From: a virus
Reading direction: 5' to 3' (one strand)
Length of the DNA stretch: 64,000 nt
Virus record (IMG/VR): IMGVR_UViG_3300032092_000005
Coordinates: 1-64,000 of that record
Shown here: piece by piece, positions 35,466 through 38,607 of the stretch
Numbering within the stretch: the first letter of the stretch is position 1
Layout: each line of letters starts with the position of its first letter
The notes under the pieces: generated by a model
What the model was told of the DNA's origin: nothing
The model's database searches: none
What the model saw: the letters and a program-made list of their open reading frames with translations, nothing else
Program-made: the position numbers and the translations under genes

Positions 35466-35524
35466 CACAACACCCGACTACCCTACCAAAAAGCCTCAAG
35501 ACAAAAAATCTTGAGGCTTTTTTT
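35438..35524 (+). terminator. Intrinsic terminator with competing antiterminator
   Basis: AAAAAGCCTCAAGA/TCTTGAGGCTTTTT stem + T-run; 35438-35448 also pairs 11/11 with 35487-35497. Confidence 0.75.
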
Positions 35525-35527
35525 ATT

Positions 35528-35629
35528 GTGACTTAAAAACAACACTTCTTAAAAAAAGTGTTGACAACCAAGAAGATGCATGTTATCATACGTGTATCGA
35601 TTGAGAAATCAATCACTTGCTCCTTAACA
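35528..35629 (+). promoter_or_regulatory. tRNA-array promoter with boxB-like hairpin and boxA
   Basis: TTGACA-17-TATCAT (extended TG); GATTGA-GAAA-TCAATC; TGCTCCTTAACA. Confidence 0.7.
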
Positions 35630-35649
35630 ATTTGTATCCATATTTTTAT

Positions 35650-35723
35650 TCCCGAGTAGTGTAGTGGTAACACACCAGACTTTGACTCTGTTATTGTAAG
35701 TTCGATTCTTACCTCGGGTGCCA
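35650..35723 (+). tRNA. tRNA-Gln(TTG)
   Basis: Cloverleaf, CT-TTG-AC loop, TTCGA, CCA. Confidence 0.9.
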
Positions 35724-35725
35724 GT

Positions 35726-35800
35726 GGTGATATAGCACAGTGGAAGTGCAACTCCTTCATACGGAGTAGGTCGTTGGTTCGAATCCAACTATCACCACCA
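35726..35800 (+). tRNA. tRNA-Met(CAT)
   Basis: GGTGATA/TATCACC, TT-CAT-AC loop, CCA. Confidence 0.85.
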
Positions 35801-35840
35801 TATAAAAACACATTCCTATTTTTAGTGTGTTTCTATATGG

Positions 35841-35959
35841 TTGACATGCAATCATTACCGTGTTACAATAACACATCAACAAAAAAAGGAAGCGACATGA
35901 AACGTTCAGGTAAACGATAGTGTCAACTTTTGATCCCATGTATGGTCTTAAGTTGGCAC
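35841..35959 (+). promoter_or_regulatory. Promoter + minigene MKRSGKR (35897-35920) + hairpin
   Basis: TTGACA-17-TACAAT; AGGA SD; GTGTCAACTT/AAGTTGGCAC stem. Confidence 0.65.
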
Positions 35960-35986
35960 GTAAAAGAAAATTCAATACGTAACAAC

Positions 35987-36060
35987 CACTCTAAACTTTG
36001 GCGGTGAAGTCCTGCCTCTTAAGCAGCGAGAATTGAGTTCGAATCTCAAAGAGTGGACCA
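35987..36060 (+). tRNA. tRNA-Lys(CTT), atypical D-arm
   Basis: CCACTCT/AGAGTGG, CT-CTT-AA loop, TTCGAAT, ACCA. Confidence 0.8.
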
Positions 36061-36065
36061 TACAT

Positions 36066-36141
36066 GGGATCGTGGTGAAATGGTTATCACAGCAGACTTT
36101 TAATCTGCCAGTTTCGGGTTCGAGTCCCGGCGGTCCTACCA
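36066..36141 (+). tRNA. tRNA-Lys(TTT)
   Basis: GCAGA-CTTTTAA-TCTGC, CCA. Confidence 0.92.
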
Positions 36142-36225
36142 TATAAAAACACATTAAGCACCTCGTACGGTGTTAGGGAAGTTCATGCATGGCGACTCGG
36201 CGCAGGCTATAATGTGTTTCTATAT

Positions 36226-36300
36226 GGTGACGTTAGTTTAGTGGCAAAACCGCGGGTTGTGATTCCGCTATCATGGGTTCGATTCCCATACGACACCCCA
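36226..36300 (+). tRNA. tRNA-His(GTG)
   Basis: G-1, TT-GTG-AT loop, C73-CCA. Confidence 0.88.
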
Positions 36301-36311
36301 AAGATTTTTAT

Positions 36312-36386
36312 GCCTCGTTAGCTCAGTGGTAGAGCAGTGCTTTTACACGGCGAAGGTCGGCAGTTCGAAACTGTCACGAGGTACCA
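36312..36386 (+). tRNA. tRNA-Val(TAC)
   Basis: TT-TAC-AC loop, CCA. Confidence 0.88.
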
Positions 36387-36391
36387 ATAAT

Positions 36392-36467
36392 GCCAGGATA
36401 GCTCAGTTGGTAGAGCACTTGTTTGAAGCACAAGGTGTGGGCGGTTCGATCCCGTCTCCTGGTACCA
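36392..36467 (+). tRNA. tRNA-Phe(GAA)
   Basis: CTTGT-TTGAAGC-ACAAG, CCA. Confidence 0.88.
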
Positions 36468-36477
36468 GAAATGATAT

Positions 36478-36552
36478 GTGCCTTTAGTAAAATGGATATT
36501 ACACAACGCTACGAACGTTGGAGTGGGAGTTCGATTCTCTCAGGGCGCACCA
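36478..36552 (+). tRNA. tRNA-Arg(ACG)
   Basis: CAACG-CTACGAA-CGTTG, CCA. Confidence 0.9.
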
Positions 36553-36562
36553 AGAGATATAT

Positions 36563-36654
36563 GGAAGATGATGCAGCGGGGTTGGTCCTGCGACTGGCCT
36601 TGAAAACCAGGTTCTCAGAAATGGGATGGGGTTCGACTCCTCCGTCTTCCGCCA
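36563..36654 (+). tRNA. tRNA-Ser(TGA)
   Basis: CT-TGA-AA loop, long variable arm, GCCA. Confidence 0.88.
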
Positions 36655-36655
36655 G

Positions 36656-36695
36656 TTGACAATGAAGCTTGATTGTGATACAATAGCTTCATTGT
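36656..36695 (+). promoter_or_regulatory. Promoter for Y-like RNA/DUF2828 unit, inside an 11-bp inverted repeat
   Basis: TTGACA-17-TACAAT; ACAATGAAGCT/AGCTTCATTGT. Confidence 0.7.
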
Positions 36696-36703
36696 AGAGT
36701 TTT

Positions 36704-37149: not shown

Positions 37150-37167
37150 GATTTGAAAGGAAATATT

Positions 37168-38607
37168 ATGTCAACATTTGTAGAAGCCGTAGTAAACCAA
37201 GAAGCCCGTACTGCCAATGGCATGAAGGCACGTAAGTCCACTGCTAATGCGGTTGTAGATTTATTCTACAATGCAGGTGCAAGCCGTGGTAAGAATATTG
37301 TTCCTGCATTCGCAGCAGCATTTGCGCAAGACCGTGATCTAGCATTGCGCGTAGCCGCCTGGTTGCGTGATGTGCGTAGCGGTGCAGGTGAACGTCAATT
37401 GTTCCGTGATATCTTAGGGTATCTGGAAAACAATGATCGTGTAGCAGCAAAGGCACTTGTTGCAAAGGTTCCTGAATTGGGACGTTGGGATGACTTGTTC
37501 ATCTTCAATTCTAAGGAAATGAAGGAAGCAGCATACACATTGCTTGGTGACGCATTGCGTGAAAAGAATGGCCTTGCAGCTAAGTGGACACCTCGTCAAG
37601 GCAAGCTTGCAGCAGAAATTCGTACATTCTTCGGAATGTCGCCAAAGTTCTACCGCAAGTCTCTAGTTGAAATGACTAACGTTGTTGAAACTAACATGTG
37701 TGCAAAGGACTGGGACGGGATTAACTTCTCGCATGTTCCATCTGTAGCAGCATCGCGGTACAAGAAGGCATTCAACCGTAACACTCCAGCTTATGCAGCA
37801 TACGTTGCAGAGTTGATGAAGGATCCAAAAGATCGTACAGTTGAAGTGAAGGTTAATGCTGGTGCAGTGTACCCATATGATGTACTGAAAGGTCGCATCT
37901 CTGGTTATGGTGTGTCGTTTGACAAGACAGAATTGGATCTGATCCAAAAGCAATGGGAAGCACTACCTAACTTTGTTGGGGATGCAAACATTCTGCCTTT
38001 GGTTGACGTTTCTGGTTCTATGACTTGTCCAGCAGGTGGATCAGGCTCAAAGTCTAAGCTGACTTGCCTGGAAGTTGCAGTCTCTCTGGGATTGTATCTT
38101 GCAGACAAGAACAAGGGTAAGTTCAAGGATACGTTCTTGACTTTTTCTAACAAGCCAGAGTTGATGACTTTGAAGGGCAACATCAATGAGAAGATCAGCC
38201 AAATGGTTTCTTCTGATTGGGGAATGACTACTGACTTGAATCGTGCGTTTGACAAAATCCTTAGTGTAGCAATTAAGGGCAATGTGCCAAACAGTGAAAT
38301 GCCAGAAATGTTGCTGATCCTTTCGGACATGCAATTCAATTCTTGTGTTGCACATGACGATTCGGCTATCGAAATGATGGCACGTAAGTACGAAGCAGCA
38401 GGATACGCCTTACCAAAGGTTGTGTTCTGGAACTTGAATGCTGCATACGGCAATGCGCCTGTGAAGTTTGACAAGTCTGGCACTGCATTGGTTTCGGGGT
38501 TCTCTCCAGCCATTGTTAAGCCTCTGCTATCTGGCGACATGGAAGACTTTTCACCAGAGGCTGTGATGTTGAAGACAATCATGGATGACCGTTATACTGT
38601 GATTTAA
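37168..38607 (+). CDS. DUF2828-family helical + vWA protein (Ro60/TROVE-like)
   Basis: RDVR.G.GER..FR, GRWDDL, AAKW.PR, FS.VPS.A, DVSGSM MIDAS, SDMQF, VFWNL. Confidence 0.85.
   Translation: MSTFVEAVVNQEARTANGMKARKSTANAVVDLFYNAGASRGKNIVPAFAAAFAQDRDLALRVAAWLRDVRSGAGERQLFRDILGYLENNDRVAAKALVAKVPELGRWDDLFIFNSKEMKEAAYTLLGDALREKNGLAAKWTPRQGKLAAEIRTFFGMSPKFYRKSLVEMTNVVETNMCAKDWDGINFSHVPSVAASRYKKAFNRNTPAYAAYVAELMKDPKDRTVEVKVNAGAVYPYDVLKGRISGYGVSFDKTELDLIQKQWEALPNFVGDANILPLVDVSGSMTCPAGGSGSKSKLTCLEVAVSLGLYLADKNKGKFKDTFLTFSNKPELMTLKGNINEKISQMVSSDWGMTTDLNRAFDKILSVAIKGNVPNSEMPEMLLILSDMQFNSCVAHDDSAIEMMARKYEAAGYALPKVVFWNLNAAYGNAPVKFDKSGTALVSGFSPAIVKPLLSGDMEDFSPEAVMLKTIMDDRYTVI

Follow-up and report, generated by a model that had tools for sequence, protein, structure and literature searches.

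A mini-gene and an antisense hairpin in front of phage tRNA-Lys genes: a candidate ribosome-gated switch of tRNA folding and processing

Why should a phage place a seven-codon reading frame, followed by a hairpin whose interior is antisense to the junction between two tRNA genes, directly in front of its tRNA-Lys genes? The locus lies within the first 64 kb (the stretch analysed here, referred to as the window) of the 152-kb virus record IMGVR_UViG_3300032092_000005 from IMG/VR, which stems from an uncultured lake phage and carries 25 tRNA genes. The cassette consists, in this order, of a promoter, a Shine-Dalgarno (SD) sequence, the mini-gene, hairpin 1, an A-rich hairpin 2, tRNA-Lys(CUU) (tRNA 1) and tRNA-Lys(UUU) (tRNA 2). 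We found that the part preceding the tRNAs, in the following called the leader, belongs to a family in which the antisense and the tRNA junction change together. The best reading, which we hold with slightly better than even confidence, is a ribosome-gated kinetic switch acting on the folding of the tRNA-Lys transcripts and their processing by RNase P; that the gate is the ribosome and that Lys decoding is sensed is what we infer. The elements are located as follows (nt, nucleotides; bp, base pairs):

35841–35869, + strand: sigma-70-type promoter of the Lys cassette (TTGACA, 17-nt spacer, TACAAT, TG extension; 11/12 matches)
35887–35892, + strand: SD-like AGGAAG, 4 nt 5' of the ATG
35897–35920, + strand: mini-gene MKRSGKR-UAG (ATG AAA CGT TCA GGT AAA CGA TAG), with AAA at 35900–02 and 35912–14
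35920–35959, + strand: hairpin 1, forming helix S1 of the putative ON state ("anti-antisense"), loop at 35936–43
35931–35948, + strand: antisense segment, 5' strand of the putative OFF-state helix S2, pairing with 36055–36072
35952–35955, + strand: portion of the hairpin 1 3' arm with the alternative partner 35983–35986 (putative OFF-state helix S3), 4 bp here and 6–7 bp in most relatives
35958–35980, + strand: hairpin 2 with the nearly invariant A-rich loop GUAAAAGAAAAU, common to both folds
35983–35986, + strand: 3' strand of S3, consisting of three leader nt and nt 1 of tRNA-Lys(CUU), i.e. the RNase P site of tRNA 1
35986–36060, + strand: tRNA-Lys(CUU), CCA encoded, unusual D-arm (ARAGORN)
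36055–36072, + strand: junction target, 3' strand of S2, comprising G71-G72-ACCA of tRNA 1, the spacer TACAT and nt +1 to +7 of tRNA-Lys(UUU)
36066–36141, + strand: tRNA-Lys(UUU), CCA encoded, the constant target of the antisense (ARAGORN; Rfam RF00005, 63.4 bits)

The original prediction, made from the letters of the window, had described the promoter, SD sequence, mini-gene and 10-bp hairpin at coordinates that all proved exact on recheck, and had claimed a perfect antisense to the tRNA-Lys junction. A repeat search returned the same match: GATCCCATGTATGGTC (35932–47) is the exact reverse complement of GACCATACATGGGATC (36056–71) over 16 nt (100%), and terminal G-U pairs at both ends lengthen it to 18 bp. 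The 16-nt target begins with G72-ACCA of tRNA-Lys(CUU), continues through the spacer TACAT and ends six nt into the acceptor strand of tRNA-Lys(UUU). By chance a perfect 16-nt inverted repeat within ~150 nt is expected ~0.002 times per 64 kb (64000 x 150 / 4^16), and the 16-mer has just these two occurrences in the 152-kb record. The complementarity is neither chance nor a one-off. Hairpin 1 begins with the G of the UAG (35920) as its first base and has a lower stem of 10 bp including one G-U (35920–29/35950–59). The antisense had been placed in the hairpin loop; its position is right, but the loop is not fully open, since GATC (35932–35) can pair with GGTC (35944–47) to form an upper stem.

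In order to see how widely the leader is distributed, related sequences were collected in two ways. The neighboring gene for a DUF2828/DUF7788 protein led to 55 related loci, three of which (L003, L004 and L044; loci are numbered with an L) carry the same leader. In addition, two independent exact-pattern scans of IMG/VR, scan 1 on the mini-gene and scan 2 on the 17-mer block of hairpin 2 (GGCACGTAAAAGAAAAT), returned 83 and 69 contigs, respectively, and yielded ~97 distinct leaders on contigs of <10 kb to >500 kb. The leader is preceded by a sigma-70 promoter of its own in many relatives, and in others by the 3' end of another tRNA or by the end of an open reading frame (ORF). Downstream, tRNA-Lys(UUU) follows in every instance with sufficient 3' sequence. 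Usually tRNA-Lys(CUU) is located in between (72 cases), and in L061, L072, L124, L126 and L132 the leader directly abuts tRNA-Lys(UUU). Across all fetched loci, 33 tRNA types occur five times or more, and of these tRNA-Lys(UUU) alone is preceded by an antisense complementary to its 5' edge (mean duplex -20.9 vs -12.9 for the control, other types being at background); this sample is enriched in leaders, and the control consists of the other tRNAs of the same loci. The element is specific to tRNA-Lys.

Searches for a described equivalent, of which the original prediction had known none, gave the same outcome. A cmscan of 35780–36260 against Rfam 15 (E<=10) returned tRNA and noise only, with nothing above noise in the leader region 35875–35985. 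Among 50,697 cultured phage records, a set from which records near the window may be missing, blastn with the window cassette and with a consensus-type relative (L145) matched tRNA bodies only, the leader being absent from the matches, and a scan for the leader pattern in 185,579 GTDB species genomes gave 0 matches. Full-text literature searches found no description of the leader, which is not proof that there is none.

The mini-gene turned out to be maintained in the leaders. We assessed it in the leaders of scan 2, which were ascertained by the hairpin 2 block without reference to the ORF. All 42 true leaders in this sample contain an in-frame ATG...TAG of 6, 7 or 8 codons, with an SD, whose last base is also the first of the hairpin. 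The ten distinct peptides (MKRSGKR, MKRAKR, MKRGKL, MKRTGKL, MKRSAKR, MKRSSAKL, MKPTGKR, MKRSDKR, MKRSKR and MKRSMKR) follow the motif M-K-R-x(1-3)-K-(R/L)-UAG, with P for R at codon 3 in MKPTGKR. Both Lys positions are fixed, one at codon 2 and the other separated from the stop by a single sense codon; all indels fall between these two Lys codons, and the only change seen at them is AAA to AAG. One member, MKRIAKM, uses the Arg codon AGA instead of CGN (CGU to AGA, once). Of 97 members, 95 have an SD-like 4-mer between -16 and -4, irrespective of what precedes the leader. Elsewhere TAG is seldom used as a stop, ending 2 of 55 long ORFs in the window.

Covariation of the antisense duplex in related phages had been named as the test of the prediction, and in ~70 distinct relatives the helix is both conserved and covarying. 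We aligned 71 distinct leaders reaching through the junction (MAFFT). In this alignment the lower stem of S1 is 91.7% paired, with 5 of 10 pairs changed on both sides, and the RNAalifold consensus consists of hairpin 1 and the tRNA cloverleaf. Many relatives have a continuous hairpin 1 stem of 14–16 bp with a 7–9 nt loop. Column counts for S2 are unreliable on this alignment, because indels in loop and spacer are placed independently; S2 was scored instead by a register-anchored table (ACCA anchor, 44 distinct sequences) and by an alignment-free permutation of duplex energies. The length of S2 in the family is 13–18 bp. Positions 1–14 are 70–100% paired, those beyond 14 ~40%, and positions 6–10, 13 and 14 show 2–6 standard pair types. 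In L044, for example, the antisense reads ACCCCC against GGGGGU at the 5' end of tRNA-Lys(UUU), vs GAUCCC against GGGAUC in the window; its spacer has 3 nt vs 5 nt, and the antisense and loop are shortened by 2 nt to match. Each leader fits its own junction better than those of others (mean -26.5 vs -21.7 kcal/mol; 0 of 10000 permutations as good). The segment UGGUC, complementary to G-ACCA, is always present, 100% paired and nearly invariant. In L061, L072, L124 and L132, from which tRNA-Lys(CUU) is absent, the antisense still covers ~-7 to +5 of tRNA-Lys(UUU), S2 in members with tRNA 2 alone being 8–12 bp. At position 8 an antisense G is opposite U in 26 of the 44 distinct sequences. The frequency of G-U pairs in S2 fits a pairing that works only as + strand RNA.

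A further helix, S3, had been overlooked in the original prediction. In it the hairpin 1 3' arm (GUUG in the window, GGAUGG in the majority of relatives) pairs with the 4 nt 5' of tRNA-Lys(CUU) and with nt 1–2 of this tRNA; S3 is 86.7% paired. Alignment column 84 covaries both with column 55 in S1 (UA:47, AU:14) and with column 121 in S3 (AU:48, UA:16). Sharing of columns between S1 and S3 with three-way covariation is the signature predicted for alternative pairing.

These patterns support two mutually exclusive folds that the transcript could adopt. In the ON fold hairpin 1 would be closed, the antisense hidden and both tRNAs folded as cloverleaves. In the OFF fold the interior of hairpin 1 would pair across the junction, from the 3' end of tRNA-Lys(CUU) over the spacer to about nt 6 of tRNA-Lys(UUU), while the 3' arm bridges the 5' edge of tRNA-Lys(CUU), so that neither acceptor stem nor either RNase P site could form. 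By standard pseudoknot geometry a full 16-bp S2 should be incompatible with a closed 10-bp S1 on 2-nt linkers. For the window precursor (35875–36145), an energy model without tRNA tertiary structure and modifications gives the OFF fold as the minimum free energy (MFE) structure (-86.5 kcal/mol, z = -5.3); S2, S3 and hairpin 2 are formed in it, and both tRNAs keep their inner arms. The ON fold is 18 kcal/mol costlier in the window and 10.2 +/- 4.4 kcal/mol costlier on average in 72 relatives, of which 70 have S2 in their MFE fold. When folding the growing transcript, hairpin 1 remained stable up to 36062 and the optimum became S2 once 36066 was included. Findpath gave a barrier of ~13 kcal/mol for the best nested path of refolding; we estimate that crossing it would take minutes, against ~2 s to finish tRNA 2. 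The predicted order of folding, with the hairpin first, then the switch to S2 and a barrier between them, fits a kinetic gate.

The MFE fold of the window also shows mini-hairpins in the mini-gene (CGUU/AACG, GAG/CUC, ACAG/CUGU) and a pairing of GACAU, located 5' of the start codon, with GUGUC; neither was consistently kept across variants, and we did not rely on them as elements. Only in the window's fold did the SD pair with the 3' acceptor strand of tRNA 2.

How could a ribosome decide between the two folds? In the mechanism that we propose, hairpin 1 would form first during transcription. A ribosome reaching the UAG would unwind or hold its 5' arm, and the freed antisense and 3' arm would catch the emerging tRNA ends, at a time when ~70 nt are still to be made before the tRNA has its own 3' strand, resulting in the OFF state, which would also be the thermodynamic sink. 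A ribosome stalled at either AAA, or the lack of a ribosome, would leave hairpin 1 closed and allow the tRNAs to fold, and RNase P processing would make the ON outcome irreversible. The ribosomal helicase acts ~11 nt 3' of the first P-site nucleotide according to published ribosome geometry. Applied to the window, a ribosome awaiting Lys-tRNA at the second AAA should reach 35919 and leave the hairpin, which starts at 35920, closed, and at the stop codon ~6 of 10 hairpin bp should be unwound. The second AAA would accordingly be the last position at which the helicase stays short of the hairpin. The net effect would be negative feedback: phage tRNA-Lys would be released upon poor decoding of AAA or poor translation in general, and probably only when ribosomes fail to read the Lys codons of the mini-gene. 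A narrower version, that tRNA-Lys is kept as an inert precursor and released when an anticodon nuclease of the PrrC, RloC or PARIS AriB type destroys the cellular tRNA-Lys(UUU) and ribosomes stall on AAA, would be a damage sensor; we consider it unlikely.

Several points weigh against a ribosome-gated switch that senses Lys. A terminating ribosome stays at the stop codon only briefly, and a hold of ~4 s until the junction is made would need repeated loading or slow termination. Each mini-gene has just two fixed Lys codons and no codon run; they are two among 5–7 sense codons, compared with 8.8% Lys in the long ORFs of the window. An AAA second codon is nothing unusual, occurring in 12 of the window's 55 long ORFs, and is known to favour initiation, and the conservation of Arg at codon 3 is unexplained by Lys sensing. 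In a few members the antisense extends only 2–3 nt into tRNA 2 (L106, L127), and it is interrupted in L138 and L151. Tertiary energy of the tRNAs would narrow the calculated gap between ON and OFF. Kissing between loop and junction could put the true barrier below the nested-path estimate, and placing an antisense partly in a loop is the usual way to speed antisense pairing. On the supporting side, contigs from RNA libraries (metatranscriptomes) cover 35860–36118 (run X15) and 35892–36031 (run X18), and a 151-nt contig (run X16) starts exactly at 35986, the 5' end of tRNA 1, and crosses the junction; these are a weak hint of expression, as they carry no strand, ends or level, their uncovered parts mean nothing and DNA carry-over is possible.

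Some of the same observations could be explained by a device independent of translation. The antisense:junction helix stacked on S3 might be a double-stranded RNA substrate at the inter-tRNA spacer, cut by an RNase III-type endonuclease to detach the leader and separate the tRNAs, or might act as a transient folding chaperone, with the mini-ORF serving otherwise, e.g. for protective ribosome loading. S2 is indeed symmetric about the spacer (~6 nt of tRNA 1, the spacer, ~6 nt of tRNA 2), 70 of 72 members have the OFF fold as their thermodynamic ground state, and in nearly all of the family tRNA-Lys(UUU) is followed by another long stem into which its ACCA end is drawn, making double-stranded stems at tRNA ends a theme of these phages. 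The RNA-library contig running from the leader through tRNA 2 is consistent with a long-lived precursor. What this explanation leaves unaccounted for is the conservation and covariation of the hairpin 1 5' arm as a competitor of S2 and S3, as well as the overlap of stop codon and hairpin and the fixed distance of the second Lys codon. Many other close tRNA pairs in the same arrays are resolved by RNase P and exonucleases without such a helix. In members with tRNA 2 alone S2 has 8–12 bp, which is short for RNase III, and a cut within S2 would risk clipping mature tRNA ends. We regard such a device as possible, yet clearly not as probable.

The RNA might also be bistable as proposed but set by something other than the ribosome, i.e. 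a protein of phage or host, a small RNA, temperature or the mature tRNA, with the mini-gene encoding a basic peptide that has a function of its own. Candidate sites for such a trigger would be the A-rich loop of hairpin 2, whose sequence GUAAAAGAAAAU is the most conserved non-coding block, and the antisense UGGU, to which the ACCA of uncharged tRNA-Lys could pair and which is always present as UGGUC. The peptide M-K-R...K-R/L is kept, including through one switch between synonymous codon families (CGU to AGA), and the DUF2828/DUF7788 gene is located 1 kb away. Trans pairing with a mature tRNA cannot explain covariation that reaches the spacer and tRNA 2. Furthermore, a peptide of 6–8 residues whose middle varies and whose last residue is R, L or M makes an unlikely effector, and the invariant overlap of the stop codon with the first hairpin base is a hallmark of ribosome-coupled switches. 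We therefore consider a trigger of this kind improbable. Conservation of the hairpin 2 loop is left unexplained by the switch model; the loop is an (ARN)n-like A-rich single-stranded block and a candidate site for the proteins Hfq, S1 or RNase E.

A feature of the DNA itself, whether inverted repeats for recombination, homing or protein binding or the scar of a local inverted duplication, is very improbable, for although direct repeats of the stem element flank the Lys cassette and the cassette occurs in varied array positions and phage backbones as if moving as a module, G-T is tolerated where the equivalent C-A is not (strand-specific, G:T in 26 of 44 at one position), which points to RNA, the arms co-change with matched indels while the intervening 75-nt tRNA diverges, where a scar would decay, and they are part of a three-helix scheme of alternative pairing.

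A ribosome-gated switch of this kind would have relatives among known regulators. Among the closest are the attenuators of amino-acid operons (trpL, hisL, thrL, pheL and the pheM of pheST), which have a short translated leader with codons cognate to the product and exclusive pairings whose first segment overlaps the end of the leader ORF, so that the position of the ribosome decides during transcription. The leader studied here has a leader ORF with SD, start and stop as well as exclusive pairings overlapping the ORF end, and its two Lys codons would be the counterpart of the cognate codons. In contrast to these attenuators its output consists of helices that would sequester tRNA acceptor ends instead of an intrinsic terminator, the regulated genes are tRNAs and not enzymes, there are just two putative regulatory codons, and the logic would be inverted, with the stalled ribosome leaving segment 1 free. 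On the + strand of 35500–36700 we found no terminator-like site, and hairpins 1 and 2 are not followed by U-runs. Classical transcription attenuation was therefore rejected: lacking an intrinsic terminator, the leader is not a classical attenuator, though it would work similarly. Translational attenuation, as in the leaders of ermC, cat and cmlA, also lets a ribosome that occupies a short ORF remodel the hairpin downstream of it, during or after transcription and without a terminator, but these systems answer drug-stalled ribosomes and expose an SD, whereas in the phage leader an antisense to tRNA ends would be set free. RNase III stems around rRNA and in some phage RNAs resemble the long-range helix around the mature tRNA-Lys(CUU) (13–18 bp plus a stacked 4–7 bp); they differ in that the helix here contains mature tRNA nucleotides and comes with a conserved competing hairpin and coupling to an ORF. 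The lambda bar minigenes are very short phage ORFs with a strong SD as well, yet they have two codons and act by peptidyl-tRNA drop-off, unlike the 6–8 codons, variable last sense codon and coupled RNA switch proposed here.

T-box riboswitches (RF00230) are likewise cis leaders linking tRNA status to expression and contain a UGGN : NCCA pairing. They bind mature tRNA in trans and control genes for aminoacyl-tRNA synthetases or amino acids, whereas the pairing here is in cis with a precursor and continues through the spacer into the next tRNA. The T-box covariance model gave no match in 35780–36260 (Rfam cmscan, E<=10). The nearest phage example is provided by theta ribozymes, similar to those of hepatitis delta virus (HDV-like), which adjoin phage tRNAs and have been proposed to control viral tRNA maturation (PMC10879173). 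They too are cis RNA elements of phages abutting tRNA genes, but the leader is a non-catalytic two-state fold with a mini-ORF that would act on both 5' and 3' acceptor ends. Taken as a switch, the leader would have attenuation logic with a new output, outside the RNA families described in Rfam 15.

The two tRNAs differ in how they resemble known tRNAs. tRNA-Lys(CUU) gave no match to Rfam RF00005 even at E<=10. Its four helices are 98–100% paired in the 71 relatives, with 15 of 20 pairs changed on both sides. It starts with a C1-G72 pair, has A8 and an odd D-arm (ACUU-UGGCGGUG-AAGU), and two distinct types of D-arm are found among the relatives. Downstream of tRNA-Lys(UUU) one more element adjoins the cassette:

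36138–36228, + strand: long stem starting from the ACCA end of tRNA-Lys(UUU), arms 36138–56 and 36210–28, enclosing a variable cargo

The stem (ACCATATAAAAACACATT ... AGTGTGTTTCTATATGGT) is conserved and covarying after tRNA-Lys(UUU) in nearly all family members (most of L058–L192) and reaches to within a few nt of the next promoter or tRNA. Its arms covary (e.g. ATATGCAAAC with GTTTACATAT), with one A-C mismatch being kept, and the cargo varies between 13 and 110 nt, many cargoes containing T-arm-like hairpins (GGTTCGATTCC). A second copy is located at 35797–35841, after tRNA-Met. In an RNA-library contig of one relative the cargo is left out almost exactly, with 36155 joined to 36213. The stem might act as a Y-RNA-like module or in processing, or it might be a small mobile palindrome.

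Further near-consensus promoters, both with a TG extension, are located at 35561–35589 (TTGACA-17-TATCAT) and 36656–36684 (TTGACA-17-TACAAT). As near-consensus promoters flank this part of the array, the tRNA region appears to be split into several transcription units. In the middle of the tRNA array (37153–38607) lies the gene for the 484-aa (amino acids) DUF2828 + DUF7788 protein, which is 63–90% identical in all 55 related loci; its nearest homologues in cultured phages are only ~46% identical, and some records label it RNA-binding. It might handle misfolded pre-tRNA.

Among relatives without the leader, three (L021:1389–1520, L048:4995–5135 and L049:4984–5115) carry a Lys/Arg-rich ORF of 43–46 aa (MKRKPIARERNCFVRLALFRKAGSHRKSNKALRK...) with a strong SD; the ORF extends across the 5' end of tRNA-Lys(UUU), where cleavage by RNase P would deprive it of its stop codon. 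Since this ORF begins with MKR like the mini-gene, the two may be related. A suspected resemblance to ArfA was dropped, with no match in Pfam (E<=1) or PDB (E<=10). Two loci (L012:1674–1750 and L051:277–353) contain an ARAGORN tRNA with the anticodon UUA (ochre-suppressor type). In L012 it fills the array slot after tRNA-Met that is taken by tRNA-Lys(UUU) in the similarly arranged L008, and it may be a one-base derivative of tRNA-Lys. Moreover, a 364-kb phage contig carries a tRNA-like gene with a four-base anticodon call (tttc; L044:2102–2176), and a related phage contig carries a transfer-messenger RNA gene with the tag ANDEMFALAA (L043:4148–4534).

Phage tRNA genes are usually viewed as constitutive helpers of codon usage or as decoys against tRNA-cutting defences. 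If the proposed switch is true, a phage would regulate the release of a specific tRNA by sensing the decoding of that tRNA's own codon, and ribosome-mediated attenuation would gain a new output, in which an antisense within the same molecule sequesters the acceptor ends and RNase P sites of tRNAs. Should the reading as a damage sensor also be true, this would amount to on-demand replacement of a tRNA wired directly to the ribosome. The element is compact (~100 nt), and the model of it rests on covariation; it could serve as a portable sensor of decoding capacity. tRNA-Lys(UUU) is a classic target of anticodon nucleases and depends on heavy modification, and the leader may bear on why this tRNA in particular needs special handling.

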